This document shows positions 25,935 through 64,000 of a stretch of 64,000 bases of DNA, in pieces (the first letter of the stretch is position 1; each line of letters begins with the position of its first letter). The notes below the pieces were generated by a model that saw nothing but the letters and a program-made list of their open reading frames with translations, did not search any database and was not told the origin of the DNA. Position numbers and translations under genes: made by a program. The stretch is from an uncultured virus (IMG/VR IMGVR_UViG_3300027578_000004) (lineage: Duplodnaviria > Heunggongvirae > Uroviricota > Caudoviricetes), in IMG/VR virus record IMGVR_UViG_3300027578_000004, one strand, 5' to 3'.

Positions 25935-26576
25935 TTACTTTTTACGAGCCTTACCGCCCTTGGTGTATTTGACTACCAACTTTTGTAGATTCTTTGGTAG
26001 CTTTGGAGGTTCATAAGATGGATTCTTAGACTTATGATCTACCTGCTTTTCAGTCTTTCCAACAGGACGCATAGGTTCAGTTGGATCATCTTTTGGTTCA
26101 TTCATGGCCTTCGCCTTGATAGACTTTACTACCTTGTTGTCTTTTTCTGGATCAACCAAGTTTTGTTCTTCTGATGCCTTATCTGCTTTCTTACCACCTT
26201 CTTTATCCTTGCTGTTTTCTACATTCTTTTCATAAGCATTATCAACATAGTTTAGTTCTTTTGAATTCAACCATTCTTTGACATACTTCTTGACATCCTC
26301 AAATGGAATATACAAAATCTTTTGACGTTCTACACCGTCTTTAAAGTATTGTAAATCGAAGATATCGTGAACTATAGGGCGAATGTTAATGTGATGAGGC
26401 TCACATTCGCATACGTTGTAGTTTCCAGCATCGTCAAGAGTAATAGGCTTCTTGATTTCTTTAGATAAAGATTCCATCATTTCAGCCCAGGTCTTATTAA
26501 CCTCAGTCGTCTTTTCCTCAATGACCTCTCTTACTATCTTTTTTACAGCATTTTTCAGTTGATCTCTATAGTTCAT
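25935..26576 (-). CDS. Hypothetical late protein, possibly head-internal
   Basis: N-terminal LKNAVKKIVREVIEE, highly charged; late-type motif at 26592-26599. Confidence 0.65.
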   Translation of the reverse strand: MNYRDQLKNAVKKIVREVIEEKTTEVNKTWAEMMESLSKEIKKPITLDDAGNYNVCECEPHHINIRPIVHDIFDLQYFKDGVERQKILYIPFEDVKKYVKEWLNSKELNYVDNAYEKNVENSKDKEGGKKADKASEEQNLVDPEKDNKVVKSIKAKAMNEPKDDPTEPMRPVGKTEKQVDHKSKNPSYEPPKLPKNLQKLVVKYTKGGKARKK

Positions 26577-34867: not shown

Positions 34868-35263
34868 TCACCAAGAAAGCACAGAAAACAACTTTAATCC
34901 GACTATTTTTACGCCTGGATCTGCTACCAAAATGATGCTATTTTTGTATAAATCCCAGTTCAATTGAAAGGTTTTATCGAACACACCGTTGTTCTCGTCT
35001 TCAATCAATCTGTTCATCGCATTCAACGTATATAGCGTGTTGGTTTGCTTCTTTCTGTGAACGCTTATCGTATTCGGGTATTTAATTTTAGAATCAATGT
35101 TTTTAACAATATTGAATGTGAGATAAATTTCTCTCAGATTCTTCTCGTTAGCAAACACGAATATTTTGTTATCTGCCATCTCGTAGGTCTTTTTGATCTC
35201 GTCTACGACTGACAAATATTTGTTGCTGTCTGAGAATGTGCAAAGCAGTTGTTTTTGAATCAT
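34868..35263 (-). CDS. Hypothetical protein
   Basis: 131 aa, ATGA-coupled; QLLCTF...HRKKQTNTLYTLNA. Confidence 0.75.
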   Translation of the reverse strand: MIQKQLLCTFSDSNKYLSVVDEIKKTYEMADNKIFVFANEKNLREIYLTFNIVKNIDSKIKYPNTISVHRKKQTNTLYTLNAMNRLIEDENNGVFDKTFQLNWDLYKNSIILVADPGVKIVGLKLFSVLSW

Positions 35264-37137
35264 GTTAATGTAGGTTCAGCAACAGGAGGTAACTGCGTCG
35301 ATGTGTTTGGCATTTCCCATCTCCAAGCACCATCGGCATGTCCTTCAAATCCTAAAAATTCTGTGAAGCTTTCCCATCCCTCAGAAATCAACGCATTTAG
35401 ATATCTCGAAAAGCGCAATAACACTTCAAATATACTTTGTAAACCAGATTTGATGTTCTCCCAAGCCTTTGTGAAAAAGTCTTTTAATTCGCCACTAAGC
35501 GATTTGATTGTGGTCCAAACATCACTAAAATAGTCACTGATCGACTTGCCTATACTTTGCACTGTGTCCATAAGGCCTTCGTCCAATTTGATTTCTTCTA
35601 GTTTGATATCACCACGAATCGCAATACCACGGGTGCCACCACGGTTTGAAAATCTGAACGATATGTTCTTATCGTTTTCAGTAATGAACTTGTCTACTGT
35701 GTAATAATGGCAATCACCACTACAATCCCAAGTCATCATATAGTCGGCAATACACTCGGCACTAAAGTCTGCCTTTCCTTGTTGGAATCTACGTTTTCCA
35801 GTAGCAAGTTCCTCAATTAGCAAACGACGACGAGCTGGTTGAACAAATACGCTATTGAGTGTCAACATCACAGTTTCAGTATTAACAGGTATCACACCCT
35901 TCTTTACAAACTGTTTGTTTTGAATAATGATCTTCTCAATATCACCAACTTCTGCTTTGATTTGATCTACAGATTTATTACCTTTAACAGCATTCGTCAA
36001 CGACTTTTGTAGTTTCTCTTTTACTTCATCGTTTAGTCCGATATAAAACTTCTTTTGTAGACCATCCATAATGAATGACGAAACTTGTTCCATCACCTTT
36101 ACGTCTTCACCAGAGTCTTTCAAAATAGCAGATACTACAGAATTGACTTCGGCATTTTGAGCACTACAAATTTGTGCTCCCTTTGCCTTCAAACTGGCTC
36201 TCATACGTGTCTTACCTTCAAAGATCAAATCGGTCTTTGAGGTTCTGTCAATATTTGCAAAAATAGGATTGGTAATATTACATCTCAAATTACCCAATGC
36301 AGTTGATGCTTTGATACCTTGTTTCTTCAACTTTGCTACAATCTTCTTAGCAACATCGTCGTCTGTTTCAATTCCAGCAAACTCGTCATTGATGTGATAC
36401 TCCATTTTTTGAGCATTACATTTGACTTGCTTTTCTACTACAACAACTGGACCAACATTTTCTTTATAAACTTGTTCACCAATCATGTTGCCAGCCTTGT
36501 CATACCAACGAAGACCATTTTTTACATATCCCAATTCAGTTGCTTCGTTGACAGTATATTCTTCTTTCTCACAATCATTGCACCCACAATCTTCACATTC
36601 ATCTACTTGTTGGTTGATCAATGGAACTCCGCCAGTCAAAATTGAATCAACAGCAGCCGCATCTTGAACTTTTTCTTTTGTGCTTCTGTCGTCTTTTTTA
36701 TCATCTCCAGTAACTTTCTTGTTCAACTCCTTGTCAAGAGAAACTGTGTCAGACTTATCTTGTTTGTCTTCTTCACCAGAATCGGTTTTCGCAATATCAG
36801 CGGTTGATAGTCCTCCTGTGTCAGAGGGTGAAAACAAAGTTCCTGCATTTTTCTTCGGGTTTTCTGCAAAGTGAGTTCCTTTATCTACGGCACGGTCACG
36901 ATATTCTTTGCTTGGAAATGTAACCAATATACCATCTTTATTGTAAGCCTGACGTTCTGGGAAACGACCTGCTTCAAACAACTTTGCTGTTCTCTCGACC
37001 ACCGCATCAATTGAAAATCCAGCCTTCTCCAAGTATTCTTGTAACACAAAAACGTGTTCAGGCATTTCTAGCCTCAACACGCCATCTTTTATACGACTGT
37101 CACAACACACATCGTTTATAATTGAGTTGAATTTCAT
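35260..37137 (-). CDS. Large late protein with a putative restriction-endonuclease-like domain
   Basis: TSKTDLIF-x7-ASLK resembles a PD-(D/E)XK variant; late-type motif at 37142-37149; ATG at 37137. Confidence 0.5.
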   Translation of the reverse strand: MKFNSIINDVCCDSRIKDGVLRLEMPEHVFVLQEYLEKAGFSIDAVVERTAKLFEAGRFPERQAYNKDGILVTFPSKEYRDRAVDKGTHFAENPKKNAGTLFSPSDTGGLSTADIAKTDSGEEDKQDKSDTVSLDKELNKKVTGDDKKDDRSTKEKVQDAAAVDSILTGGVPLINQQVDECEDCGCNDCEKEEYTVNEATELGYVKNGLRWYDKAGNMIGEQVYKENVGPVVVVEKQVKCNAQKMEYHINDEFAGIETDDDVAKKIVAKLKKQGIKASTALGNLRCNITNPIFANIDRTSKTDLIFEGKTRMRASLKAKGAQICSAQNAEVNSVVSAILKDSGEDVKVMEQVSSFIMDGLQKKFYIGLNDEVKEKLQKSLTNAVKGNKSVDQIKAEVGDIEKIIIQNKQFVKKGVIPVNTETVMLTLNSVFVQPARRRLLIEELATGKRRFQQGKADFSAECIADYMMTWDCSGDCHYYTVDKFITENDKNISFRFSNRGGTRGIAIRGDIKLEEIKLDEGLMDTVQSIGKSISDYFSDVWTTIKSLSGELKDFFTKAWENIKSGLQSIFEVLLRFSRYLNALISEGWESFTEFLGFEGHADGAWRWEMPNTSTQLPPVAEPTLT

Positions 37138-45006: not shown

Positions 45007-45023
45007 TGTATATAAATATCAGA

Positions 45024-47684: not shown

Positions 47685-47711
47685 ATGTCAATTATACTAA
47701 TAAATATCTAG

Positions 47712-48720: not shown

Positions 48721-48765
48721 AAATTATAACAATACATAGAACCAATTGTATATTTTTGGATATTT

Positions 48766-49557
48766 TTATTTTGGCTTGATCTTCTTTTGAGCGTCTTGTG
48801 CAGCTTTTGTTAAAATACCGGCTCTCACATTAATTTTAGCAATTGCGTCCTTAAACTTGGATTCTGGTCCAACCAAAGCATCCATAAACCCATTGTCTTC
48901 GGTCATTATTTTTTTGATCAATGCTTTGATTTTTCTTCTTTTGATTTCGTCCATAGATTTCTTCTTGGTTAATATGTTATAAATACTTTTGACTACTCCA
49001 GTTTTTACGCCTGGATAATTTGTCTGGAAATTCTGAACGTCTCCGTTTGCCAAATCTTGTCTCAATGTGCTGGCACTAATACTTTGTCCGTTTTTTTCAT
49101 CGGTTCTACCTTGATAGTTTGTTGGAGCATCGTCAGTCATTTCGATCACCGACACATTCTGTGGTGCTGTTGAACCGTCTTTTGTTGGTTTGGTTTTATA
49201 ACGATCAACTGCTGCTTTGAATATCTTGCTACGTTTAGCATCTTCTGGACTCTTGGAACTGGCTGCCAATGCGATGGTTTCATTACTATCTTTTGGTAGA
49301 TTGAAAACATATCCAAATGCTGCGTTCATAGGACTGTCATCGTTGACCGGCACAACCTCTACCTTGGGGTTTGTAGGCAATAGGTTCCATATTGCTACAC
49401 TCTGTTGACGGTTAACTCCATCACGTTCACTTGGTCCTACCATCACAATTACTTTACCAACATCACTTCGACTTGCAAATTTGTTGGCTAATCCAAGATG
49501 CCCAGCATGAGGTGGTTTGAATCCACCGGGTAGTAGCACAGTTACTTTATTGTCCAT
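48766..49557 (-). CDS. Cytidylyltransferase-like (HIGH-family) nucleotidyltransferase
   Basis: PGGFKPPHAGH (HxGH) and ISASTLR. Confidence 0.8.
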   Translation of the reverse strand: MDNKVTVLLPGGFKPPHAGHLGLANKFASRSDVGKVIVMVGPSERDGVNRQQSVAIWNLLPTNPKVEVVPVNDDSPMNAAFGYVFNLPKDSNETIALAASSKSPEDAKRSKIFKAAVDRYKTKPTKDGSTAPQNVSVIEMTDDAPTNYQGRTDEKNGQSISASTLRQDLANGDVQNFQTNYPGVKTGVVKSIYNILTKKKSMDEIKRRKIKALIKKIMTEDNGFMDALVGPESKFKDAIAKINVRAGILTKAAQDAQKKIKPK

Positions 49558-49578
49558 ATCAATAAATATACATAAAAG

Positions 49579-49609
49579 AAAAAACCCTCCGCTTTTTTGA
49601 CGGAGGGTT
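49579..49609 (-). terminator. Rho-independent terminator after the tail tube gene
   Basis: 9-bp stem AACCCTCCG/CGGAGGGTT followed by a T-run on the minus strand. Confidence 0.8.
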
Positions 49610-49632
49610 CAAAGGACATAAATGAACAGTAA

Positions 49633-50124
49633 TTAGTATTGGAGGATGCAGTAGTCTGGTTGAACAGTCAAGTTGATCTTCATTGCTTCACCATCGTTTG
49701 ACCAGTCTAGTGAGTTGAACGTTGCTTCGGTGATGAACGAACCCTTGAGTGTCCATTCTTCTACTTTGTCACCAACTGGACCTAGAACGTTGATGGTCAA
49801 ATCCTTCTTATAGAAGTCTTGGTAACCGTCACGACCAGTTACAGATTCATGGTGCAAACGAACCCATTCCATTACAGCTTGGGCACCAGAAGGAACGATT
49901 GGGTCATACAATTCTAGTGTTACTTGACCCCAGATGCTCTTACCCTTGTAAAAGGTTCTGATGTTGATATGATCAAGCTCCTTAGCTGCTTGTGTTAGTT
50001 TTGGACGGTCTGTCTTCTTGATAATGAATGAAGGAACGCCGTCGCAATACATGATAAAGCGGTTTTGAACCTTTGGCTCAAATGCTGTGTAAAAAATTTC
50101 TGATGGATTTAGTAATTCTGCCAT
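49633..50124 (-). CDS. gp19: Tail tube protein (T4 gp19-like)
   Basis: FEPKVQNRF, RP, W..VTLELYD, VMEW, YKKD, LGPVGDKVEEWTLKG, LDWS, DY. Confidence 0.9.
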   Translation of the reverse strand: MAELLNPSEIFYTAFEPKVQNRFIMYCDGVPSFIIKKTDRPKLTQAAKELDHINIRTFYKGKSIWGQVTLELYDPIVPSGAQAVMEWVRLHHESVTGRDGYQDFYKKDLTINVLGPVGDKVEEWTLKGSFITEATFNSLDWSNDGEAMKINLTVQPDYCILQY

Positions 50125-50148
50125 AGTGTTATTCCTTTATGTCCTAGA

Positions 50149-50156
50149 TATAAATA
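50149..50156 (-). promoter_or_regulatory. Putative late promoter TATTTATA (representative of 17 copies)
   Basis: The same 8-mer TATTTAT(A/T) lies 3-24 nt upstream of 17 starts; positions are listed in the findings. Confidence 0.7.
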
Positions 50157-50185
50157 TGATTAAGATTCAATTCTTGTGATTTTTT

Positions 50186-51346: not shown

Positions 51347-51362
51347 TATATTAATAAATATG

Positions 51363-51695
51363 TCATTTCTTAAGAAACAAAGAGTATATTACACGACCAA
51401 GTTGTGCGCTAAACTTTCTTACTTTATACTCTGGTAGATCCCAAAAAAATGCGTGAGTAACTTCTTCAATCAACACATTTAGTCTACGTCTAGTTAAAAG
51501 ACTCTTATCAATTAATATTCTGGAGTTTTTAAGGCTTGGATTGTAACACCAACCATCAGCGTCTTTTATATCGGAAAAATGAATTGGAATAATCTGCTTT
51601 AAGTAGGTTTCTATACTTAATTGCTGCGCTTTGCTGATGCTGCGTTGCTTGTTGCGCTTGTTGCGCTTATTGCGCTTATTAATTTTAGCATTCAT
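51363..51695 (-). CDS. Small basic protein with a degenerate zincin-like motif
   Basis: NKR x3 N-terminus; LIEEVTHAFF (EExxH in place of HExxH); TTGACA-N16-TATAAG upstream (51729-56). Confidence 0.6.
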   Translation of the reverse strand: MNAKINKRNKRNKRNKQRSISKAQQLSIETYLKQIIPIHFSDIKDADGWCYNPSLKNSRILIDKSLLTRRRLNVLIEEVTHAFFWDLPEYKVRKFSAQLGRVIYSLFLKK

Positions 51696-51731
51696 ATATT
51701 AAGCACATAAACAGCAATGCTTGCTGCGCTT
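51621..51731. repeat. AAGCGCA (TGCGCTT) x5 array
   Basis: TGCGCTT at 51625, 51653, 51662, 51671 and 51725; the 11-mer TTGCTGCGCTT at 51621 and 51721. Confidence 0.8.
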
Positions 51732-51736
51732 ATACT

Positions 51737-51919
51737 TTATATATCCAGAATGTCAACTAATTTTACTCCAAGACCTACAGAAATATCCAACTTTATTTTG
51801 TGCGATTGGAATAAATCTTCGAATACCGTTAAAAAATCTTCGTCTGCGGACCCATTACTTTGCGAGTTGATGGGTTCGTAGTAGATTTCATCATCATACT
51901 GCTCAAACCGTAGTTTCAC
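51737..51919 (-). CDS. Small acidic hypothetical protein
   Basis: 60 aa, GTG start 4 nt after a late-type motif (51924-31). Confidence 0.45.
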   Translation of the reverse strand: MKLRFEQYDDEIYYEPINSQSNGSADEDFLTVFEDLFQSHKIKLDISVGLGVKLVDILDI

Positions 51920-51937
51920 ATAATATAAATATGTGAA

Positions 51938-52219
51938 TTATTTAGCAGCAGGTTTAAAAGTTCCGTCCTTGATATTCAAAACACCGTCACCATACTTCTG
52001 GCTCAACTGTTGAAGAATGTCATTTTCTTCCTTTTGAATAGTAGTCCAGTCTTCAAGCAACTTCTTTCTTGCATTACCAAGATCATTCAGTTGTTGATCC
52101 AAATCGATCTTGGCAAGTTCAAGCTGGCCAAGTTCAAATATCTTTTGTTGATACTTGCCTTGGAGTTGCGCAATTTGTTGCATTTCTGCGTCGGTAAACT
52201 TTGTAACATTTTCACTCAT
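51938..52219 (-). CDS. Small coiled-coil protein (possible fibre chaperone)
   Basis: Heptad pattern, ends LSQKYGDGVLNIKDGTF; ATG 52219 follows a late-type motif. Confidence 0.7.
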   Translation of the reverse strand: MSENVTKFTDAEMQQIAQLQGKYQQKIFELGQLELAKIDLDQQLNDLGNARKKLLEDWTTIQKEENDILQQLSQKYGDGVLNIKDGTFKPAAK

Positions 52220-52260
52220 ATACAATAAATACAGGCGGGTTGGTCCCCGCCATTATTTTA

Positions 52261-53652
52261 TTAGAGTTTATCAATCACGACTTTCAACTTATCAACGTCC
52301 TTACGTTCAGCGTTAATCATGTAATAGAAATTTACGGTTCCCTTATTAAACAACTTGTTGAAGAAGTTTGTCTTTCTATCGACACCAATATAAATCTTGT
52401 TGCCTTCTACCTTTTCAACATAATAAGTGTCAGGAGACCCAATTGCGGTCAAATGAACAGTAATGGTAGATTCATCAATCAACCAAGTCCAGTAGTCAGG
52501 CAAATCAATCGATAATGATTCGGATCTACCACGAACGAACACAGCGTGTTCTGGACCTTCCAGCGTAGCATGAACGAGTCGTTTCGTTTCATCTTCTTGA
52601 TGGTCAATAACGAATGACTTTGTAGATGCGGCAAATGAACCTTGGACCTCAAGATTAAACTGAGGGTCCATTACATCATTGATACCAACTCTACTACCAG
52701 TTACGTAAAATACGTTTGTTCCATTTACACTACTTACAACTCTAAAAGGCGCCGAAGAACCACTTGCGATCAACTGACGTTCAACTACAACGTCTCTGCC
52801 AACTGTAACGTCATTTTCGACAGTCAAGTTGTTTAGAACATTGAGATCGTTAACAGTAAGAACATCTTGAACCAACGCCGTTCCAGCCATCAAACTACCA
52901 ACATCTGCGTTACTAGCACTCAAACTACCACTCAATACCAAACCAGTAGATTTATCTTCCCAAATTCCGTCAGCGGCGTTATAGACTAAGAATGCGCCGT
53001 CTGCAGGAGAAGCACTACTACTAATATTGCTTATTTCGTCAATAGTAGTAGGTTGTTTTACGTCAACAAAGATTGATCCAGTAGTGTTGTTTACACCAGT
53101 GATATAACCAACTTTGACCACATCTCTAGGAGCATTTGGACGAATACTAGTATATGAACCAGAAACCGAAGGACTCACATACAACTCGTCACCAAGAGAA
53201 AATCCAGTAGCAGTGTTTAAACCAGTCAAATATCCACTGGTCAAAACATATCCAGTAAATCCAGCTGGTATTGAATCGTTGACAACACCCAAAATGTCAC
53301 TGGTAATTGTAGATCCAGGGGTGTGTATTTTGGAAACTGCTAAATCTACAACTATTTGAGAACTTAAATTACTTCCAATTACACTAACAACTTGGCCTTT
53401 AGAGAGTGTGAGTCCAGAACCATTTTGAACCAAAACTAAACTTGGACTAGGAGCTCCTCCGCCATTTAAAGCGTAAGAAGCACTCAAAGCATATGAAGCA
53501 GATTCAACTCTTACAGAAGACGAAGGAATGACTACAGGAAATTTATTTTCATCAAAAGCTAACAAAGACGCAGTTTGTGGTCGGATAACTTGCTCAGTAA
53601 ACGAACTACCACTTCTGCGGCTTAATAATAAATCCTTTTCTAAAAAAATCAT
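52261..53652 (-). CDS. Tail fibre/appendage protein
   Basis: ASYALSASYALNGGG linker, RVGIN...LEVQG, C-terminal KSFVIDH...LVHATLEGPE...LPDYW domain typical of phage fibres. Confidence 0.7.
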   Translation of the reverse strand: MIFLEKDLLLSRRSGSSFTEQVIRPQTASLLAFDENKFPVVIPSSSVRVESASYALSASYALNGGGAPSPSLVLVQNGSGLTLSKGQVVSVIGSNLSSQIVVDLAVSKIHTPGSTITSDILGVVNDSIPAGFTGYVLTSGYLTGLNTATGFSLGDELYVSPSVSGSYTSIRPNAPRDVVKVGYITGVNNTTGSIFVDVKQPTTIDEISNISSSASPADGAFLVYNAADGIWEDKSTGLVLSGSLSASNADVGSLMAGTALVQDVLTVNDLNVLNNLTVENDVTVGRDVVVERQLIASGSSAPFRVVSSVNGTNVFYVTGSRVGINDVMDPQFNLEVQGSFAASTKSFVIDHQEDETKRLVHATLEGPEHAVFVRGRSESLSIDLPDYWTWLIDESTITVHLTAIGSPDTYYVEKVEGNKIYIGVDRKTNFFNKLFNKGTVNFYYMINAERKDVDKLKVVIDKL

Positions 53653-53695
53653 ATCTTAGTCTAATATAAATATGAACAGTTCCAGATATATTCAA

Positions 53696-55129
53696 TTAAA
53701 ATGTTTCATCGACCATAGCAATCGGAACACGACGCCATTCACCGTATGAATATATGTAAAAATAGTTGCCATCATAGCTTATCCAACCATCTTCACCATA
53801 GTCGGAAGATTTGTATGGAACTTGATGATAATACTTATCTGGAAATCGTTGAAATACTCTAAAAGCAGTGTTTATTGGTCGAACTCCGTTAGAATAAACG
53901 GGGTTACCATTACAATCGGTTCCACTGATATAAGCCCCACTATTTGGGTCAAAATCAAACACTGCGATAGCTCTACGCACCCATCCTAGTGGTTTGCGAT
54001 ATACATAAATAAAATATTCATCGTATGCCAACCAGCCATTTTCTCCATAATCCGAGGTCTTTTTTGGAGGTGGTCTGAACAATACTTTCTCTGTAATTGC
54101 TGGTTTGTCGTCTTTTTCAAGGTCTGGTGCTCGTGTTGCAGAGTTGTATTTTACACCCACATTCTTCAAATAAGAGTATGGATTCTTGATATTTGAATCT
54201 TCAACTTGCGACATTTGTTCACCGTTTACAACATAATCAGACACCACAATCTTTCTGGTAGTGAACGTTTTTTGAGTTGTTGACTTGACACCATCAATAG
54301 TTTTTGGCAACAAGTAAGCATTGACAACCAAGTTAAAAGTCGTTTTTACATTTCTGTCTTCACCGGCACCCAACTCAACCGTGTTGGTATAGTCATCAAC
54401 TCTGGTTCTAAATCTGAAATCTCCCACACCCCAATAATCATGTGTAGCAAAATTGATCTTTTCCAATAACTTGTTGTTTTGATCAACATAATCTGTCCAC
54501 AAAATACACTCGTAAGTTATAGTAACATGATCTGGCAACGTAACATTGTAGATCTGATTGGTAGGTTTGTTTCTAAATGGATTGCCCAAATTCAAAATAT
54601 TGAACTTGTCGTATTTGTTCTTTTGATCAAATTTAGCAACAACTTGATATGACAAATAACGATTCAAAGTCATCAAATCTTTATTGTTGCTTACTGTGGC
54701 CCTCTTGATCAAAATAGCAGGCAACAAGATTTTACCTTGGTTATCACGCAAAAACCCGTCTCTTCTAACAGCATTCCATCTTTCTGGACTTGCATATAAA
54801 ACTGGAACCTTTACCAATGTTCCGTTGTCCATCACAGTCAAATCAACTCGTTGACTCATGTGGTTGATTATAGTAGTATCAATGTCAAGAAGAGTTACAC
54901 TAAAATTCTCGGTCTTGTCTTGATCACGACGAACTGCATTTTCTTTTCTATATGGACCTACCAACGGAATTGCCGTATTATCGTTAGGCATTGGGACACC
55001 AGTATCCTCATTTTGAATGACAGGTCTTCTAATATCAGACAAGTTTGAATTATCTTGTTTGACGTTAGGAGCAGGGTTGATTCCTTTTCCGTTTTGGCTT
55101 TTACCAGTTGGATTACCTTTCCACGACAT
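53696..55129 (-). CDS. Tail terminator/sheath stabiliser (gp15-like) with a C-terminal duplicated module
   Basis: VPVLYASPERW, LPAI, PDHVTITY, AYLLP; follows the gp13- and gp14-like genes. Confidence 0.7.
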   Translation of the reverse strand: MSWKGNPTGKSQNGKGINPAPNVKQDNSNLSDIRRPVIQNEDTGVPMPNDNTAIPLVGPYRKENAVRRDQDKTENFSVTLLDIDTTIINHMSQRVDLTVMDNGTLVKVPVLYASPERWNAVRRDGFLRDNQGKILLPAILIKRATVSNNKDLMTLNRYLSYQVVAKFDQKNKYDKFNILNLGNPFRNKPTNQIYNVTLPDHVTITYECILWTDYVDQNNKLLEKINFATHDYWGVGDFRFRTRVDDYTNTVELGAGEDRNVKTTFNLVVNAYLLPKTIDGVKSTTQKTFTTRKIVVSDYVVNGEQMSQVEDSNIKNPYSYLKNVGVKYNSATRAPDLEKDDKPAITEKVLFRPPPKKTSDYGENGWLAYDEYFIYVYRKPLGWVRRAIAVFDFDPNSGAYISGTDCNGNPVYSNGVRPINTAFRVFQRFPDKYYHQVPYKSSDYGEDGWISYDGNYFYIYSYGEWRRVPIAMVDETF

Positions 55130-55132
55130 AAA

Positions 55133-55699
55133 TTATGTTTGTCTTTCTACCACATTCAACTTACTGAGTCTGCTGTAGTGTGTATTGCAGATAAAACTCC
55201 AAGACTTATCTGGATGACCACCTAAAAATTGTTCTTGAATTACGTTGTCAATTTCATAGAAACGTTCGTTGTATAATAACACATCACCAATTTCTGGGAA
55301 GAAACCAGTAACGATACAATCACGTTCACGAAACTTGTATACTACACTTTGATTGCGATCTGGTCCGAACCCTTGGTTATCGTCACCAGTAATATCTTCA
55401 CGTTGAATCAAAGCGGTCATATTAATTGCTGGATAAAACGCCTTACCAGTGTCAGATGTTGCTTCACCATAGATGTTTACTCTAGTTTCAGTCACAGCAA
55501 CCTTGAACAATTGAACAACACATTCAATTATATCGCCGACCAATTCTGCGTTGATAGAACTAAGAAAGTTCATATCACGACTACTAAAATACCTACCAGG
55601 TAAATAATTGGTTCCATAGATACCAATGTCTTTACGACCATTGGTCCAGTATTGAGGAAAATTATTCTGGGGATACTGTGGTGTTACTGGGGCTGCCAT
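55133..55699 (-). CDS. Head closure/neck protein (gp14-like)
   Basis: NIYGEA, PEIGDVLLYNERFYEIDNV; synteny. Confidence 0.7.
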   Translation of the reverse strand: MAAPVTPQYPQNNFPQYWTNGRKDIGIYGTNYLPGRYFSSRDMNFLSSINAELVGDIIECVVQLFKVAVTETRVNIYGEATSDTGKAFYPAINMTALIQREDITGDDNQGFGPDRNQSVVYKFRERDCIVTGFFPEIGDVLLYNERFYEIDNVIQEQFLGGHPDKSWSFICNTHYSRLSKLNVVERQT

Positions 55700-55702
55700 A
55701 GA

Positions 55703-56938
55703 TTATCCTATATAAATGTGAACTGGAACCTTAGACAACATTTTGTTCATTGCCTCAGATTCTTTTTCGGTATTCTCCATCTGATTTACTCTCAAAGACT
55801 TGTCCAACATGTCTCTAAGTTTTTCAAGAAGATTAGACATTTCATCCTTAGCCTCAGCACGAAGTTCAGCACCGTCCAAGGTTACTTCACCACCTGGAAT
55901 TGGAACCGTGCTATACTTCTGCAAAATACGACCAAGTGTTTCTTTACATAGTGCCAAGAAATACTTTTTGATCCACTGTTTACCAGCTTGATTGATCTTA
56001 CAATATTGACAATACTCATACGGCACATCACTTGGATCACTAATGTATTCATATCGTGAACCACTAAAGAAGTTGGTAATGTTCTTGTCACTTTCAACGT
56101 AGTAGTCGATGTAGATTCTAAGATCAGTAGTTGGTATTGGGAAAATTCTCAACATGTTGTCACCAGTGATTTGGAAACCGTAGTGACTCTTACGAACCAT
56201 GTCGTTGAATTCAATTGCTTGAACACGTTCCAAATCTTCGAAGATAGGAGTCATCAAGAATTGTGTTGCTGGACTGTAAGCACTGAATCCCATTTCGCTT
56301 AAAACGTTACTATAACTCATACCAGTCATACTGAATGGGTCATAAATACGTGCGATTGCTGGTGGTCTAAAATGGAACACTCTACGAACTTCAATACGTG
56401 ATCCAGTAAGATGTTCAATTTGGTTACCAATAATTTGATTCAAGTCAAACACTTGATGACTATCTTGGGGACCACCAAAACTTGCAGATCCAGTTGCCAA
56501 GAATGATGCTCTCTTTAACTCTACTTCACCACCAACCAACGCTTCACTACCATATTGTTTGCTTAGTTGGACGATAAATGGTATACCGCTACCTTTGACA
56601 CTGAGACCAGTTAAGTTTTGATACTGGTCTTGTGGTAAACCTTGAACGTTAACCAAATTGTTGACGATGTTGAATTCGTTGATTACACGGTTATACTCCA
56701 ACACAGCTTCTTCAAAACATGCATAAAAGTTGACATCGATCATTTCAATGTCAACGATTGGATAACCTAAACGTTTTGCTGCCCACATCGCACTACCACT
56801 ACAATCGTTCTCAAACGTTGTTTCTGTGACAGAACAGTTGGTTTCATCAAGATAATAACCAAAGGGAACACTCGCAGTAGTAACCGCACTACCTGATCCT
56901 GGCCACCTTACTCTATCTTGGTCTAAATTAGCACTCAT
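55703..56938 (-). CDS. Head-tail adaptor/neck protein (gp13-like)
   Basis: RLGYPIVDIE, WIKKYFLALCKETLGRILQKY...PGGEVTLDG. Confidence 0.85.
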   Translation of the reverse strand: MSANLDQDRVRWPGSGSAVTTASVPFGYYLDETNCSVTETTFENDCSGSAMWAAKRLGYPIVDIEMIDVNFYACFEEAVLEYNRVINEFNIVNNLVNVQGLPQDQYQNLTGLSVKGSGIPFIVQLSKQYGSEALVGGEVELKRASFLATGSASFGGPQDSHQVFDLNQIIGNQIEHLTGSRIEVRRVFHFRPPAIARIYDPFSMTGMSYSNVLSEMGFSAYSPATQFLMTPIFEDLERVQAIEFNDMVRKSHYGFQITGDNMLRIFPIPTTDLRIYIDYYVESDKNITNFFSGSRYEYISDPSDVPYEYCQYCKINQAGKQWIKKYFLALCKETLGRILQKYSTVPIPGGEVTLDGAELRAEAKDEMSNLLEKLRDMLDKSLRVNQMENTEKESEAMNKMLSKVPVHIYIG

Positions 56939-56983
56939 TAAATATAAATATCGGAATCTTCGATATTAGTGCTAAAATCTACT

Positions 56984-57523
56984 CTATACCAAATTATTAC
57001 CTTCAAACTTTCGTGGACCACTCAAATCCACAATTTTATACTTAATTGGCATATCTTTTATAGTAGCATAAACAGCCTTTATGTTCTTGGGACTGTCGTC
57101 AATAAAAAATATGTCGTTGTAACCCTCATTTTCAATTTTATCCTTGATCCAGTTAGCCTTAGCCATAGGATCACTAGTTCCAACGGTCACAATAGGTATA
57201 TTGACTTTAAAATACCTCTGGAGAACGTTTTGTATGTGAGGCTGACTCTCTGGACCTCTCGCAGTCAAAACAACGGCAAGACGACCATCTGACCCCGCAC
57301 TGACTATCTTATAAAACCTCTTGGCTACATTACGAATAACTACGGGATCTATAACCGAGCTAAACTCTGAAAAATCAAATTTGTCACCGGGTTGTTGAGT
57401 ATACACCGCATATTGTGCAGGTGTTAATTTGACAACCGAACCATCTGATTTGGTCAATATTACTTTACCACCAGTTTCAAAAAGTGTGTCATCAAAATCA
57501 AATACTCTTAGTTTCTTGGTCAT
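56984..57523 (-). CDS. HAD-superfamily phosphatase (polynucleotide 3'-phosphatase/RNA-repair-like)
   Basis: VFDFDDTLF, VLTAR, K, FIDDSPKNI. Confidence 0.8.
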   Translation of the reverse strand: MTKKLRVFDFDDTLFETGGKVILTKSDGSVVKLTPAQYAVYTQQPGDKFDFSEFSSVIDPVVIRNVAKRFYKIVSAGSDGRLAVVLTARGPESQPHIQNVLQRYFKVNIPIVTVGTSDPMAKANWIKDKIENEGYNDIFFIDDSPKNIKAVYATIKDMPIKYKIVDLSGPRKFEGNNLV

Positions 57524-57651
57524 AGGAATGATTGCGCAATCAACTTATAGTCAGAAACATATGGTTTTGGTTGTGACTTTTTAACAGCATCCTCCTTCAG
57601 TTTCTTTGCCTTGAGAACCTTCTGAAGAGTGTTTTTTACTTTCTCATTCAT
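57520..57651 (-). CDS. Small basic protein (43 aa), not in the ORF track
   Basis: MNEKVKNTLQKVLKAKKLKEDAVKKSQPKPYVSDYKLIAQSFL*; overlaps both neighbours and fills the gap exactly. Confidence 0.6.
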   Translation of the reverse strand: MNEKVKNTLQKVLKAKKLKEDAVKKSQPKPYVSDYKLIAQSFL

Positions 57652-57913
57652 ACATTTTTGTAATTTTGACTACAAGTTTTCCAGAGCCTTTTATGACTCT
57701 GTGATACGTTTCTTTAGGTATAAATATTGAACCCTCCATCAAACACGGAAGATTATTATCCAATTGAACCTCCCAACCACCATTATTCTCCACAACCTCA
57801 ACCAAACGGTTTTCTTTATCCAAATGCCACTCTAATTCATGACTATCTATACCAGAATCGAACTCACGAATATATTGATTGTTTCCCAAGCTTGTCTCTG
57901 TATAAGGCATCAT
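57644..57913 (-). CDS. Cupin-like protein
   Basis: ELEWHLD...W...IFIPKETYHRVIKGSGKL two-motif cupin pattern. Confidence 0.7.
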   Translation of the reverse strand: MMPYTETSLGNNQYIREFDSGIDSHELEWHLDKENRLVEVVENNGGWEVQLDNNLPCLMEGSIFIPKETYHRVIKGSGKLVVKITKMYE

Positions 57914-58707
57914 ACATTTCTAGGACGCATTGGTTCTATTGTCCTCAGATGCGAATCATCGTCATCAGATTGTTCTACACTGTCTACCTTCTTTACATTT
58001 TTATAGTAATTTTCAATCCATTTTCTACCAATTGGATTTTTTATAGGACTCTTCAAAAAGTCAATCACACTTCTCAAAACACCTCTATCAATTGGTTCAT
58101 TGTTCTTTGTTCGATCAACTATTCTAAAGTTGTTACGAAATATGTTTTGAAAATGACCCAAATTATTTTGACAGCTAAACCACATCTGTGATAACAAATC
58201 TTCTGGTATCTTACGAGATCTCTTCGCATTACGTTCCATTGCAACTTGTAAACTAGTGTTGACAAATATCATGTAACAATCATATCCATGTTGTTCCATA
58301 ACACGTTTCTTGATTTGTATTGATTCTATACTATCACCAGTTCCATCTATGATAAGTCCTAATTTAGCCTTTCTATACATGTCTAGTTTTTTTCTTGTGA
58401 TTCGTTTTGCTTTTTCTCTAGTAGATTGAGGACCAACAGTCAATCGTTCAAACTCTTCTGGACTCAATTTACTAAAGTCTGTAGATATGTTCATATTATG
58501 AAGCATCTTCTCAAACTCGTTATCACTATTGATTACCTTCAAACCATATCGATTTACAGATGAATTGGAAGGTAAATCAAATAACTCAGTAGCTACAGTG
58601 CTTTTTCCACTACCAGGCCCACCAGCCATAAATATACACTTGAGAGTTGATGGATCATCGACACCCTCGGTCAATCTATGCTTTTTTAGTAGTTCAAGTA
58701 AATTCAT
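57910..58707 (-). CDS. Zeta-toxin/PNK-like P-loop kinase
   Basis: FMAGGPGSGKS, INSD, LIIDGTG, VNTSLQVAMERNAKRSR. Confidence 0.85.
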   Translation of the reverse strand: MNLLELLKKHRLTEGVDDPSTLKCIFMAGGPGSGKSTVATELFDLPSNSSVNRYGLKVINSDNEFEKMLHNMNISTDFSKLSPEEFERLTVGPQSTREKAKRITRKKLDMYRKAKLGLIIDGTGDSIESIQIKKRVMEQHGYDCYMIFVNTSLQVAMERNAKRSRKIPEDLLSQMWFSCQNNLGHFQNIFRNNFRIVDRTKNNEPIDRGVLRSVIDFLKSPIKNPIGRKWIENYYKNVKKVDSVEQSDDDDSHLRTIEPMRPRNV

Positions 58708-59705
58708 AATGATTTGATATAAATATCAGTGTCTCTCTTCAATTCATCCTCTGGCACATTATCCAAGTTATCACCATACTTCTGTGTCCAATATTGTTTG
58801 ATCTTACCCAACATTGGTCCTGGCTTTAATTGTGGAAAATTAGCCATCAACCACTCACCACCATATTTGGATTTAACTGGGGTAAATGATTCAATCTCTT
58901 TTTGTTTATCCAACAACATCTGATACTTTTCTGGAAACAACCGCTTCAAGAAATAGTCTGGGTCACTAATCTGTTTGTGTTTATTCAAACCAATCAATGA
59001 CTTTCTAATATAATCAGCACTAGGTCTACCAGCTCTAACTCTCTTACGATCACTGTGATTCATAGTTTGACCCTTATAGTCATCGCTATCAAACATAGGA
59101 CTACCACTAATAAACTTAACAACATCATCATTGTTTTGTATACTATCGTAATCACCCAATACATCACCATAACCAAGTATTTTCAAACCGTCTTTTAGAT
59201 TCTTAGTAATTAGTATATCGTGATGTCTACCACTTTTATCTACATAAATCTTTTGAAAACCTGTAGTAGCATACTTGTAACCATTTTGTCTAGCCATTAC
59301 ACCCAATATACCACTAAAGTCTCCTAGTGCTAAATAAGTCTTTTGTGCGTCAAAGTCATCGTCTGTATCCGCATACAGAAAGTCTACATGAACATCCTTA
59401 CCCAAATCAGACTTGTAAAGAACACTATAGATATTTCCGTTACGACTATAATCCTTTACCTTATTACCCAAATTAGATAACAACGTGTTCTTGATATCAC
59501 CAGACGATCCTGTCAACACAATATCAATATCACCATGATCTTGTTTGGATGGTAGTGATTTACTCAATTCAAACTTGCTAAAACTATTACCCAGTTGATT
59601 CTTGAGTTCGTCAAAAACACTGTTCATTTCAGATGTAGTAATTCTACTGGCTCTACTACCAAATAGTTTGCCGCCCTCTTTCAATAAATCCATTAACTTG
59701 ATCAT
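58704..59705 (-). CDS. Pol-beta/PolX-superfamily nucleotidyltransferase
   Basis: HGDIDIVL, VHVDF, ARQNGYKY..TG...LGY (PolX thumb-like), C-terminal GGEWLM...LKPGPMLGKI (CCA-enzyme tail-like). Confidence 0.7.
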   Translation of the reverse strand: MIKLMDLLKEGGKLFGSRASRITTSEMNSVFDELKNQLGNSFSKFELSKSLPSKQDHGDIDIVLTGSSGDIKNTLLSNLGNKVKDYSRNGNIYSVLYKSDLGKDVHVDFLYADTDDDFDAQKTYLALGDFSGILGVMARQNGYKYATTGFQKIYVDKSGRHHDILITKNLKDGLKILGYGDVLGDYDSIQNNDDVVKFISGSPMFDSDDYKGQTMNHSDRKRVRAGRPSADYIRKSLIGLNKHKQISDPDYFLKRLFPEKYQMLLDKQKEIESFTPVKSKYGGEWLMANFPQLKPGPMLGKIKQYWTQKYGDNLDNVPEDELKRDTDIYIKSL

Positions 59706-59752
59706 AGACTATAATTAGATCCACACACTCGACTCACTGATGATTTAATCAA

Positions 59753-61933
59753 TCATGATGTTATATAGGCCATTGTAAACGGTGTTGTGGTAGAACTTTG
59801 CGCATTTGTAACTGAATTACCAGTAATACTATAAACTTGAACATAATCAGTGCTACCATTAAAATAAATTAATAACGACAAATTCGTATTAACAACACCG
59901 GTCCCACCGTCAGACGTTAAATCAGCTCCATTTTTGCGTAAAGTTAAATAACCTTCTCCTCCACCGCTATAAACTCTTGCTCCAGCAGATACTTGATACC
60001 ATCCGGCTACAGTTGGAGTAAATCTACCCGTTGTATTATTATACCAACTGGTAGAATCCGTTACTGCGATATTATATTTAATTATTGTAGCTGCATAACC
60101 ACCAGGATTTACAACACTTGTTGTTCCATATCTATAAATTGCAGTCGTTGATCCGCCGCCGCCACCACCATTTAAAGCATATGAAGCGGTTAAAGCATAT
60201 GAAGCGGTTAAAGCAGATGAAGCGGCCAAAGCATAAGAACTGCTAACGGAAGCTGACGCAAAACTTGAACTAATAGAACTTGTTGCGAAAGTAGCAACAT
60301 CAGCGTGACTCGAGCTTTGTATGTATTGAATAATTTCTGAATAACTAGATGATACCATTACATTTGTATAATCCAACACATTAACATATACTCTATCAAC
60401 AATCTGTCCCAGAAATTGAGAGCCTGACACAGGTTGTCCTGTGGCAGCCATCTTTCTTATTTTTAATGATGTATTATCCAACTTTTGAACACCATAATCT
60501 GACCCAGTATCATTCAATCCTCCAACCAGAGCTACATAAGTTGTATCATATTGTGTATATATACTATTTGGAAATTCGATTGATTGTGGGGTAAAACTAC
60601 TTGTGTATCTAGCAACACCTTTAGTAATTCTAAACTCATCCAAATATCCGAACATTGCTGTGGTTGGACTACACGTTGGACGGGAACCTATGTAAGTCGT
60701 GCCTCCTTGGTTATTTATAATTCCAGTTATGCCGGCACTCGACTCCAGAACACCGTTTATGAACAAATAAACTGTATTATTGTCTCTGGTTACCACAACA
60801 TTATACCATGTGTTTTGAGAGATTGTAGTTGTGGATGTAACACTTGTTAGTGTTGATCCCACAACAAAAGTGGCATTTATTTTATTATCTGCTTGTCTAC
60901 CTATATCAAGTGTTAAAGTTGTATAAGCATTACAATCCGCTCTTCTGGATAAAATGGGTCTATATACACCTACGTCTGAAAAATTTGCCCAAAATTCAAT
61001 TGTAAAATTTGATCCCGCAAAAACAGTAGGCACGCTTGAAAATGATAGATAATCACCGGTGCCATCGAAATATCCGCTTCCACTACCAAATTTATAAATT
61101 GATGATGTAATTTTTGTATTACCACTCCTAGTCACACTCACATTATTCGGCCCACTATCTGCAAAAGTGGTGGAATTATTAGCCCCATTAAAATGTAGTA
61201 ATAAACTACAACTTGTATAATATGGATCGCCAGTTGCGTAAATCCATCTTTCTAAAACAGAAACACCCCACGCATCACCTTCCAGATTAAGACCCGTTAT
61301 GATATTTTCTTGGTCCGGTCCAACCGAATATAATATTGTCTGATTCACAATACTGCCTGTTTGTAACGACGCAGTAATAATATTATTGTAAACTGGAGCA
61401 GTTGCATACGAGGCTGTTATCGCATTGTTACTCCAACTTGCAGTTATTGGATACGTGCTACCAGTTATTAATGTTGTTCCTCCTTCACTTGCATTTAATG
61501 CATATGAAGCCGTCAACGAATATGAACTACTAATACTATTCGCAACATAACTTGCAGTAGATGCAAAACTGGAACTTGTAGAATTATCCGCATTAACAAC
61601 ATAACTGCTGCTGATACTCCTACTTGCAGTTATTGGATATGTTGAACCAGTTGTCAAAAAAGAACCAGCATTAGATGCGTATGAAGCAGTCAAAGCATAA
61701 CTTGCACTGACAGCACTACCACTATAATAACTAACAGCATAACTTGCTGTCGCAGCATATGAAGCGCTTCCATAGAATGTTCCACTATTATTATGCGTAT
61801 AAAAATTACTCGCGCTTATTGTTGATTCATATGAAAGATTACTTCCAGAAATTATTAATTTTCTTACAGGATTAGATCCATCTTGAAAACTAATTTCTCC
61901 ATCTCCAGGCGTTATGATGATATTAGTTGGCAT
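59753..61933 (-). CDS. Fibre/adhesin with SASYA repeats, LamG (ConA-like) and C1q-like domains
   Basis: LLLHFNG...YFDGTGDYL...FTIEFW...GYLDEFRITKGVARY; C-terminal TGRFTPTVAGWYQV...NGSTDYV. Confidence 0.8.
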   Translation of the reverse strand: MPTNIIITPGDGEISFQDGSNPVRKLIISGSNLSYESTISASNFYTHNNSGTFYGSASYAATASYAVSYYSGSAVSASYALTASYASNAGSFLTTGSTYPITASRSISSSYVVNADNSTSSSFASTASYVANSISSSYSLTASYALNASEGGTTLITGSTYPITASWSNNAITASYATAPVYNNIITASLQTGSIVNQTILYSVGPDQENIITGLNLEGDAWGVSVLERWIYATGDPYYTSCSLLLHFNGANNSTTFADSGPNNVSVTRSGNTKITSSIYKFGSGSGYFDGTGDYLSFSSVPTVFAGSNFTIEFWANFSDVGVYRPILSRRADCNAYTTLTLDIGRQADNKINATFVVGSTLTSVTSTTTISQNTWYNVVVTRDNNTVYLFINGVLESSAGITGIINNQGGTTYIGSRPTCSPTTAMFGYLDEFRITKGVARYTSSFTPQSIEFPNSIYTQYDTTYVALVGGLNDTGSDYGVQKLDNTSLKIRKMAATGQPVSGSQFLGQIVDRVYVNVLDYTNVMVSSSYSEIIQYIQSSSHADVATFATSSISSSFASASVSSSYALAASSALTASYALTASYALNGGGGGGSTTAIYRYGTTSVVNPGGYAATIIKYNIAVTDSTSWYNNTTGRFTPTVAGWYQVSAGARVYSGGGEGYLTLRKNGADLTSDGGTGVVNTNLSLLIYFNGSTDYVQVYSITGNSVTNAQSSTTTPFTMAYITS
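60173..60240. repeat. 18-bp tandem repeat encoding TASYAL units
   Basis: TAAAGCATATGAAGCGGT x2 exact, plus 2 degenerate copies. Confidence 0.85.
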
Positions 61934-61989
61934 AGTTTATTATAAATATTAGAAAATTGCTATGCCCACAGTTAATACTGCGGTTTAAT

Positions 61990-62493
61990 TTACAATTTGT
62001 TATATGTCTTTTCAAACTCAACTTTAGCAATACGATAATAACCAGTATTAGCTGGGTCTTTTACCAAATAATCGCCTGGCTTAATAATCATGTCTTCTCC
62101 CCATGGAGCTTTAAATGTTACTGGTTCACCTGTATACAAAGCAACTTGTCTTGGAGATTGTTCTGGGTAAATATCACCACCAACATTACCAGTATATAAC
62201 TTAGGCAATTTAGCTGCCTTGATAACATAATTCTCACCAGTAGCACCACTGAAAATAATATCACCAACATCAGCAGTGTTTTGTGTTTCTTTACCATCAC
62301 TGGTTGTAGTAACTACTGGTTGTTGAATTGTTGACTTGGTATATGTCATTGGAGGCATAGAACCAGGCTTACCTCCGTCAATGTATTTATAAACCAACTT
62401 TTGTTTGGTCACTGGCTTGAATGCCAATGTGGATGCAATTTGATTGATATCTGCATTAGCAACTTCACTGAGAATGTCTTTTAGTTTAATCAT
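61990..62493 (-). CDS. PGDYG-like protein (two subdomain repeats)
   Basis: ADVGDIIFSGATGENYVI...LY and APWGEDMIIKPGDYLV...FEKTY. Confidence 0.7.
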   Translation of the reverse strand: MIKLKDILSEVANADINQIASTLAFKPVTKQKLVYKYIDGGKPGSMPPMTYTKSTIQQPVVTTTSDGKETQNTADVGDIIFSGATGENYVIKAAKLPKLYTGNVGGDIYPEQSPRQVALYTGEPVTFKAPWGEDMIIKPGDYLVKDPANTGYYRIAKVEFEKTYNKL

Positions 62494-63023
62494 AGGTTTA
62501 TAAAGTATTTGCCTTTTGGCCCACTATACTTGAATCTGGTAATTGGTAAAGATATATTTAGATTGTCTTTGATGTGTGGAAAGCTACCCTTCTTCACATA
62601 AGCTAATGTCATGTGGGGTTTGTAGTCTGGGTAACCGTCAGTATTTGGATAACCATCACATCTACGTCTCAATTCGGTCAATATAGGACTTTTTTCAACT
62701 TCAAACTTGACCACATCAAATTTATCATTCTCAAACAAATTGAGTGCTTTCAATACCACATTAAATGGCTTTACACCTTGAAGGATTCTAGCCACATCTG
62801 TTCTACCAATATCTGGTTCAAATCCATACTTGAGAGTCACATGAGGTTCTTCATCATAACCATATGTAGGATCATTAGGATCAGTATATAGTATTTGCGG
62901 TGGTATTGCGGTTCTACCAAGTCTAATTACATGTGGTCCATAAGTAGGACTTACATGTGCCATTAAACAACCTTTTTCAACGTGTCTATTTTCTACGAGT
63001 AACATATTTTCTAATAATTTCAC
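62490..63023 (-). CDS. 2H phosphoesterase (LigT/T4 gp57B-Acb1-like)
   Basis: Two HxT motifs: PHVTLKYG and YKPHMTLAY. Confidence 0.85.
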   Translation of the reverse strand: MKLLENMLLVENRHVEKGCLMAHVSPTYGPHVIRLGRTAIPPQILYTDPNDPTYGYDEEPHVTLKYGFEPDIGRTDVARILQGVKPFNVVLKALNLFENDKFDVVKFEVEKSPILTELRRRCDGYPNTDGYPDYKPHMTLAYVKKGSFPHIKDNLNISLPITRFKYSGPKGKYFINL

Positions 63024-64000
63024 GAATCAAATGTTCCTTCTTTACCAATTGGTCCAAAGGCACACCTCTATACTTTTGTCTTAGTTGCGCAATTGGCATA
63101 CCATATTGTTTTTCAGCTTGAGCAATCAGATTGTATCTATCTTGTTTCTCTTTTTCTAAAGATGCCAATTTACGAGCAACTACAGTAGCAACAGTATTCT
63201 TAATGTTATCATTATAATACTTCTCACCCGATACCAAAAGATCATTCAATATTTTAATTTCTACTTCTAACCCATTTACTTCTTTTTCTAAATTATCCTT
63301 TTCAGCAGGCGTAAGTTTCGCTCCTGTTGTATGAAGTTTTCCTCTCTTTTCAATAAACTCTTGTGTCTTATCATCAATTACTTTTTCCAAACTAGGTTGT
63401 TGTTGTATTTTCGTAAGACCCCAAGAAGGATAATCAAATTCACTACCAACCGGTGTATTGGACAAATCACTATCAGTTACCTTTATTGTTACATTATTAC
63501 CTTTAATAGCCGTAACATCAGCTCTTATACCAAGTCCTAGGATTTTTATTTTGTCACCTACTTTGAATTCAACATCTGCTTTATCCGTAACAGATGGTTT
63601 AGGTGGAGGAGTTTCTTTCCTAGGTTCTTCTTTGTCATACAGTTCATTGTATGACCTTATTTTGCTACCAATTTCATACAAACACTCAGTTGGATTATAT
63701 CCATTAAACTCTATGACTTTTTCATATTGATCTTTGTATGGAATTACCTTATCTTTATTATAATCCCAGAATGTTACAATGATAGCTTTACCACTCGGGA
63801 TTGTGCTTTCAATTTGAAGATCCAAATTTTCTGGCGGTTTACCATCTGTATTGTCTACCTCAAAGATTCTACCTTTCATGATAGGATCTGAATATGCGCC
63901 CATTCTACCCAACCCCTTTAGAATATTTTCCAAATCCAAATGACCACCACCATTATTACTAGCCTTTAATCGTTTGATACCTTTTTGGGCCCAATAATCC
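62986..64000 (-). CDS. Hypothetical protein, partial (frame open to the window edge)
   Basis: The frame continues upstream of 63939 (DYWAQKGIKRLKASNNGGGH...); SH3/KOW-like FKVGDKIKI segment; ends HLIREIIRK. Confidence 0.7.
   Translation of the reverse strand, partial: DYWAQKGIKRLKASNNGGGHLDLENILKGLGRMGAYSDPIMKGRIFEVDNTDGKPPENLDLQIESTIPSGKAIIVTFWDYNKDKVIPYKDQYEKVIEFNGYNPTECLYEIGSKIRSYNELYDKEEPRKETPPPKPSVTDKADVEFKVGDKIKILGLGIRADVTAIKGNNVTIKVTDSDLSNTPVGSEFDYPSWGLTKIQQQPSLEKVIDDKTQEFIEKRGKLHTTGAKLTPAEKDNLEKEVNGLEVEIKILNDLLVSGEKYYNDNIKNTVATVVARKLASLEKEKQDRYNLIAQAEKQYGMPIAQLRQKYRGVPLDQLVKKEHLIREIIRKYVTRRK

Follow-up and report, generated by a model that had tools for sequence, protein, structure and literature searches.

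We analyzed a 64,000-nucleotide (nt) stretch of IMG/VR virus record IMGVR_UViG_3300027578_000004, here referred to as the window, and found that several of its unrelated late proteins are probably packed into the head by a T4-style N-terminal leader that would be cleaved by the phage's own protease. The window derives from a river phage that has not been cultured and is a distant relative of T4. A preliminary description had proposed that a peptide MIKLxD(I/L)LxE is a lineage-specific packaging tag on a nucleotidyltransferase (NTase), a PGDYG-like protein, a P-loop kinase and a 2H phosphoesterase, which together make up a virion-packaged RNA/nucleotide counter-defence kit. The packaging part of this proposal stood by inference from a protease, the T4 register, confinement to the head block and a kinase homologue in a virion proteome, while the anti-defence purpose is unproven. 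The leader mechanism is already known from T4, which limits the surprise.

The window comes from a large myophage of the T4 superfamily, with replication genes at 1-38 kb and tail and baseplate genes at 38-56 kb. Among cultured phages, the neck protein has relatives in Mel-JY01 (40%), Flavobacterium phage immuto (32%) and RM378 (25%). Another IMG/VR record (G002) shows 100% identity with the window across 21,410 bases and extends it by 26.6 kb, encoding gp23, scaffold, S77 prohead protease, portal, terminase and sheath. Proteins were annotated over 90.6 kb of a genome that CheckV places near 265 kb. The protease, a gp21-like enzyme that the preliminary description had expected elsewhere in the genome, lies about 8 kb beyond the window end (PF03420, E 2e-31; T4 gp21 structure 5jbl, E 3e-20), and its ELDHP, SSRG and D motifs line up with those of T4 gp21. 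The protease match is interrupted by an in-frame insertion, possibly an intein, in two relatives (G007:71436-72494 and G013:74418-76124).

Three of the four proposed leaders were verified in place, namely MIKLMDLLKE (start 59705), MIKLKDILSE (62493) and MNLLELLKKHRLTE (58707). The fourth, MKLLENMLLVE on the 2H protein from 63023, stood only in part. A GTG exists there, but a start at this codon overlaps the upstream open reading frame (ORF) by 38 nt, and the reading occurs only in this phage and an 89% relative (L316) among 38 distinct 2H N-termini, which came from 64 of the 79 loci. Nine of the 38 rows begin M-hydrophobic-x-E where ATG 63005 sits, 3 of these nine having a stop at most one codon upstream, and 11 rows start without any leader. 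Because orthologue N-termini begin there or lack a leader, GTG 63023 was rejected, and the 2H protein most likely carries the 5-residue leader MLLVE from ATG 63005. Three related helices noted earlier are all present, although two are not N-terminal; the remaining one, on a 213-amino-acid (aa) ORF, is a possible second leader class. The ORF at 62986 has its true start 257 nt past the window, with a full leader, and the extension adds five leader-bearing ORFs in all (MVKLIDILVE, the leader of this ORF, MIKLNDLIE, MIKLRHLVE, MIKLSNILSE and MISLSDLLTE). The scaffold in the extension begins MSDLLKE. Tag-like amphipathic helices were also seen at the protease C-terminus (IIHDIISEL, L082:11526-12134) and the terminase N-terminus (LREIIKQE, L082:16164-17777).

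Comparison of homologues suggests that the leader is a removable propeptide. Of 120 close NTase homologues, 115 have a leader of 6 to more than 20 residues that ends in [LIV]-x-E and stands directly before GG. Among 121 distant full-length NTase matches, 61 start M-GG (one of those away from the domain), GG is preceded by hydrophobic-x-E in 6, another arrangement is present in 4 and 50 fell outside the regular expression. Since the leader ends exactly where leaderless NTases begin, it takes the place of the start Met, as judged from these alignments. Hydrophobic-x-E also stands ahead of the domain in 118 of 120 kinase homologues, and PGDYG and 2H orthologues in other phages bear different leaders, such as MKTFREFVE. 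The term lineage-specific was therefore too narrow, as orthologues in other large phages bear other leaders of the same type. Moreover, sequence comparison found the (L/I)-x-E site type of the tag in capsid, scaffold and protease; LLDE followed by A/S lies near residue 60 in 16/16 family capsid proteins, and L-I-x-E is found in three more distant ones.

These features recall T4 closely. Passages of PMC9026906 report that T4 gp21 cuts after L/I-x-E, that targeting maps to residues 4 and 7 and processing to residues 8 and 10, and that Asp10 blocks cleavage alone and keeps targeting. The capsid targeting sequence (CTS) of the internal proteins (IPs) IPI-III is taken off by gp21 (passages of PMC9026906, PMC9958956 and PMC5694885); gp24 loses its first 10 residues, and the localisation of core proteins is described as mysterious (passages of PMC9958956). 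Ip1-3 are injected anti-defence proteins encoded at variable Ip loci (passages of PMC12373910). Like the CTS, the tag is a short N-terminal leader common to unrelated proteins, with a homologous S77 protease in the same genome and a variable cargo locus. It has Leu4, Ile/Leu7, Leu8 and Glu10, agreeing with the hydrophobic residues 4 and 7, L/I 8 and Glu10 of the CTS and gp24. This register fits the NTase, the PGDYG-like protein and the 423-, 350- and 260-aa ORFs, while the kinase leader is longer and the 2H leader shorter.

In the T4 record, the leaders are MKTYQEFIAE (IPII/III), MAKINELLRE (gp24), MLKEQLIAE (gp22), MLLIPE (gp68) and MELITE (Alt). The removed gp24 peptide fits the tag more closely than the IP leader does, and those of gp68 and Alt resemble MLLVE of the 2H protein. 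However, at most 3/10 positions are identical between MIKLxD(I/L)LxE and MKTYQEFIAE, leader length here ranges from 5 to 17 residues, and the cargo consists of 170-480-aa enzymes instead of T4's small inhibitors. The propeptides of gp24, gp22, gp68 and Alt sit on shell, core and one ADP-ribosyltransferase, whereas here dozens of accessory families share the leader. The tag may be an analogue or a distant homologue of the CTS. The Asp in MKFNSIINDV, the start of a 625-aa ORF, may recall T4 Asp10, which keeps targeting and blocks cleavage; in several relatives, Glu replaces the Asp of this ORF.

We then counted the tag against shuffled N-termini, and the enrichment expected in the preliminary description was borne out, as was the absence from replication genes. 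A strict pattern matched 2/65 ORFs in the window alone and 6/87 with the identical extension, against 0.4 shuffled in both cases, and it exceeded shuffled expectation in 13/13 genomes or contigs. The cultured relatives gave 3/212 against 0.92 (immuto) and 6/228 against 1.34 (Mel-JY01). A wider pattern, composed after the leaders had been seen, matched 10/87 ORFs against 0.62 shuffled. It was found in 9/25 head-block ORFs and 1/62 elsewhere (p 3e-5, an optimistic value; one inside match and the sole outside match look false) and in 0/16 annotated replication and nucleotide genes. In the family as a whole, 29 of 391 clusters (1,066 unique proteins) include a tagged member; in structural families, tagged members numbered 0/33 for neck, 0/16 for capsid, 0/10 for terminase, 0/8 for portal and 0/8 for sheath proteins.

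One exact tag DNA pattern occurs in at least 126 stretches of IMG/VR. These hold at least 129 distinct ORFs, where the tag begins at the first ATG of the frame in 118/128 among the matches listed, and the ORFs listed form about 82 BLAST cargo clusters, a count inflated by truncated loci. A scan of 596 Gb of GTDB genomes with the same pattern yielded 38 stretches. The two matches from NZ_ isolate records are frames of 14-24 codons; several of the others resemble the phage proteins by eye and a few look like genuine cellular starts. Tag-bearing phage-like contigs within GTDB bins (L476, L478, L481, L482, L493, L501, L506 and L508) are probably mis-binned. Pelagibacter phage HTVC008M (L295, 103767-109412) has MIPFILKE at the start of its kinase homologue and MYNDLLVE and MKTLKELL at the starts of the neighbouring proteins, and the tagged cluster therefore extends to Kyanoviridae. 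The literature covered, largely open-access papers and including PMC4360716, PMC7824862 and PMC5694885, contains no description of the tag in Far-T4, Immutovirus-like or Atu_ph07-like phages.

The published virion proteome of Agrobacterium phage Atu_ph07 provided an outside test. The window kinase and the kinase domain of Atu_ph07 gp53 share 37% identity, and gp53 is in the virion list with 31 peptides (PMC6102473, Table S5). At 87 kDa, gp53 nevertheless reaches its highest abundance in a gel band where the median mass of the proteins listed is 21.8 kDa, although the published table does not assign individual gp53 peptides to that band; the kinase piece between its two flanking cleavage-type sites amounts to 23.0 kDa. 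This kinase homologue is present in the virion and appears to be cut. MRLIDLLE- and MKWNDLNE-type leaders occur on gp43, gp53-63, gp561 and gp672, all detected by mass spectrometry according to PMC6102473, although they are 1-2 residues shorter and belong to another phage clade; the passages of that paper make no note of leaders ("cleavage" and "internal" have 0 occurrences). Ten Atu_ph07 genes, gp53-gp62 (L294), lie in tandem; their products carry leaders of the MRWEQLTE type and are without exception listed in the virion table.

For counting, 137 of the 140 table rows were mapped by mass and position to 822 self-called ORFs, some of which are spurious since 714 genes are annotated. Of the ORFs with any [LI]-x-E ending at residue 6-14, 43/159 were in virions, versus 94/663 of the others (p 2e-4), and the union of our patterns with paralogues collapsed gave 13/32 in virions (p 5e-4). 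A profile built exclusively from 53 leaders found in the window lineage, with three false-looking prefixes dropped, placed 5/10 proteins in virions at score >=4 (p 0.015), 5/7 versus 132/815 at score >=6 (p 0.002) and 1/2 at score >=8 (p 0.31). Tag-like leaders are modestly enriched among Atu_ph07 virion proteins. A 277-aa Atu_ph07 protein is a further structural match to the NTase.

Several observations weigh against packaging by the leader. In Atu_ph07, the strict pattern chosen in advance showed no significant enrichment (3/10 in virions versus 134/812, p 0.22), the shorter pattern that gave 21/34 (p 2e-9) was devised after the virion list had been seen, and the area under the curve of the profile was only 0.575. 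A distant NTase homologue, gp65 (E 8e-5), is in the virion list without a leader, gp86, with the annotation 2'-5' RNA ligase, does not appear in that list, and the stock was purified with polyethylene glycol (PEG), the list including RecA, SSB and RNR (passages of PMC6102473). No leaderless kinase was found among the 120 homologues, so the kinase Glu could belong to the domain. Finally, 6 strict tags occur in another record, G008 (linear, 207 kb, CheckV 100%), in which there is no protease match at E 0.001.

Taking these together, we propose the following probable course for packaging by the leader. Late genes, many of them in the variable capsid-neck interval, acquire an amphipathic leader of 5-17 residues in exchange for the start Met, as is visible in the sequences. 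By analogy with T4, its hydrophobic face would bind the prohead core and so enclose the protein during head assembly. The phage's S77 protease would then cut after (L/I/V)-x-E and free the native N-terminus, in agreement with the domain starts shown above. Least certainly, small cargo would be ejected with the DNA or kept in the head. The cargo would be a changing accessory set, which here comprises enzymes acting on nucleic-acid ends (kinase, PolX-fold transferase and probably 2H) that would most likely serve early end healing or repair.

As to the enzymes themselves, the three catalytic Asp residues of the NTase (D59, D61 and D108) are invariant in a 117-sequence alignment. The model built from this alignment has a mean confidence (pLDDT) of 94, against 41 from the single sequence. 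It matches family X polymerases at Z 10.6-12.1 (root-mean-square deviation 2.8-4.4 over 158-184 residues) and RNA transferases at Z <=8.7, so that the protein is predicted to be a PolX-fold enzyme; identity as a CD-NTase or TUTase was set aside, since the structural match ranked under PolX. Like Pol beta, Pol lambda and African swine fever virus (ASFV) PolX, it has the palm-thumb fold and three catalytic Asp residues. Unlike them, it has about 140 extra C-terminal residues that weakly resemble the tail of tRNA nucleotidyltransferases, and 7/117 members match PF13735. The PolX match starts at model residue 2-19, leaving no room for lyase and fingers domains, which ASFV PolX presumably also lacks. 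PDB sequence searches with the kinase gave nothing significant.

The 2H protein matches PF13563 (E 3e-13) and, like T4 Acb1 (57B) and LigT/ThpR, has two HxT motifs (PHVTL and PHMTL). However, it reaches 24.5 bits against the Acb1 model PF23474 (cut-off 27) and lies under the TIGR02258 cut-off; its matches to T4 57B are short and local only. No PGDYG function in phages was found in the literature. The window also encodes a 5'-3' deoxyribonucleotidase domain fused to a second Pol-beta-type nucleotidyltransferase (50186-51346, minus strand), with ATATTTAT upstream and no tag.

The idea that the four enzymes form an injected kit, which would undo host tRNA or RNA cleavage or destroy signalling nucleotides before phage expression, adds to packaging by the leader, and we regard it as doubtful. 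Kinase, HAD, 2H and transferase are RNA end-healing classes listed for jumbo phages (passages of PMC7824862), T4 Ip1-3 are injected as anti-defence proteins, one relative encodes, between 2H and NTase, a CCA-like enzyme with the tag, and in phage pPa_SNUABM_DT01 a CCA enzyme comes next after the NTase homologue. The sole PDB matches of the 2H protein are to Acb1, though not significant (E 0.39 and 0.85). However, of 78 neck-anchored related loci, 59 span the interval (near-identical contigs not collapsed), and these contain 2H in 2, PGDYG in 0, NTase in 2 and kinase in 6, with all four together in 0/59. The HAD phosphatase has no leader here; the 2H protein, whose leader is minimal and in many orthologues missing, falls under the Acb1 cut-off. 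Structural matches of the NTase place PolX (Z about 12) above RNA transferases. Of the T4 Pnkp-Rnl1 tRNA repair set (kinase, phosphatase and RNA ligase), kinase and HAD are present, with no ligase among the proteins annotated over 90.6 kb. Only 14/84 tagged representatives match Pfam, including lysozymes, a cell-wall hydrolase, an M23 peptidase, NUDIX, RimK and an exonuclease, and 10/27 further tagged proteins have matches, among them GP88, Mom, amidoligase and, weakly, ADP-ribosyltransferase; another tagged protein is probably a prohead core protein. Because the four enzymes never co-occur in these related loci and the cargo includes lysozymes, the kit as a unit is unproven, and the tag reads rather as a general loading signal on a variable cargo set, like the T4 Ip loci.

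Alternatively, the leader may load the prohead while most cargo just fills the core or is carried along, to be degraded or never to leave the head, with the enzymes acting inside the head, for instance on ends or nicks of the packaged DNA, or not at all, which we consider unlikely. The gene adjoining the protease would suit this, as it is tagged in 10/10 relatives and its product is Glu-rich with 4.7 cleavage-type sites per 100 aa (scaffold 5.8); PolX, kinase and phosphatase would also suit DNA gap repair. On the other hand, the NTase and PGDYG-like protein have only 0.6 such sites per 100 aa and therefore would survive in the head, and the NTase keeps its catalytic residues. It is rather improbable that the leader serves to bind a different hub of the phage, or is a degron or localisation signal, unrelated to the head protease. 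Amphipathic helices are generic binding elements, similar ones occur at the terminase N-terminus and at C-termini, and the cargo includes Mom and exonuclease domains, but the fixed terminal Glu at the native domain start, the match to the capsid site and the head-block location would be left unexplained. A DNA-level cassette or an AT-rich translation-start bias is very improbable and was rejected. The leader codons are AT-rich and the window has 38% GC; however, the tag DNA is only 15-22/30 identical between copies, the flanks are unrelated and synonymous codons differ in 36/54 identical-residue pairs, so that selection on the tag acts at the peptide level. The exact pattern is, moreover, rare in GTDB, where several matches are phage-like, compared with IMG/VR.

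If packaging by the leader holds, the leader would make it possible to filter sequences for injected proteins, a class from which the T4 anti-restriction factors Ip1-3 came, and its reuse on dozens of unrelated families supplies natural variants for the question of how T4 core proteins are addressed (passages of PMC9958956). With a swappable leader code, sequence would reveal which proteins uncultured large phages inject. The tag is present in two cultured relatives, and testing is therefore within reach. The broadest version, tentative at best, is that the T4-type leader is a superfamily-wide swappable code and that this phage injects a so far uncharacterised enzyme with a PolX fold and tRNA-transferase tail, a kinase and a 2H protein as an end-repair counter-defence before transcription.

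Table 1. Coordinates of leaders, cargo and neighbouring features in the window.
Feature	Position	Strand	Remarks
Leader MIKLMDLLKE (10 aa) on NTase	59676..59705	-	
Leader MIKLKDILSE (10 aa) on PGDYG-like protein	62464..62493	-	
Leader MNLLELLKKHRLTE (14 aa) on kinase	58666..58707	-	
NTase, 333 aa	58704..59705	-	PolX-type palm, thumb and helical tail
P-loop kinase, 265 aa	57910..58707	-	AAA_33/zeta-like; weak PSTK likeness
PGDYG-like protein, 167 aa	61990..62493	-	PF14083 21.5 bits (cut-off 27); Atlas 0.94 to PGDYG clusters
2H phosphoesterase, 171 aa	62490..63005	-	Likely start ATG 63005; minimal leader MLLVE
423-aa ORF, 3' portion	62986..64000	-	Ends in LIREII helix
HAD phosphatase	56984..57523	-	No leader here; leader in some orthologues (L154, L457)
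89-aa ORF	57644..57913	-	No leader; kept at locus in 50/59 loci; no family match
Laminin-G/concanavalin fibre-like protein, 726 aa	59753..61933	-	Within cluster; no leader
Neck/head-tail adaptor gene	55703..56938	-	Lower border of variable interval between capsid and neck genes
213-aa ORF	25935..26576	-	ATATTTAT upstream; longer amphipathic N-terminal helix ending in Glu
625-aa ORF	35260..37137	-	Among replication genes; ATATTTAT upstream; starts MKFNSIINDV
HIGH-motif cytidylyl/adenylyltransferase-like protein	48766..49557	-	Tag-like helix internal, residue 210 on
ATATTTAT	e.g. upstream of starts 56938, 58707, 61933, 53652, 51346, 49557, 37137, 26576		

With regard to expression, ATATTTAT is present within 40 nt of 18/87 starts, where 0.5 would be expected; in many cases it stands 4-8 nt ahead of the ATG, and it is likewise placed in six relatives. 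It precedes structural genes, the kinase and operon heads, and is probably the late promoter, from which nearly leaderless mRNA would arise; it closely resembles the T4 late box, TATAAATA, in reverse complement. Metatranscriptome contigs from four river runs cover 28-30 of 30 bins of positions 44001-64000, with strand, start and timing not resolvable from contigs. In addition, a Mom-like DNA modification gene adjoins the capsid gene on the opposite strand (L082:5281-6054, plus strand), and in one relative (L013:3375-4031) an ORF has a prepilin-type start (AFTLIELL), a possible hint of the host.

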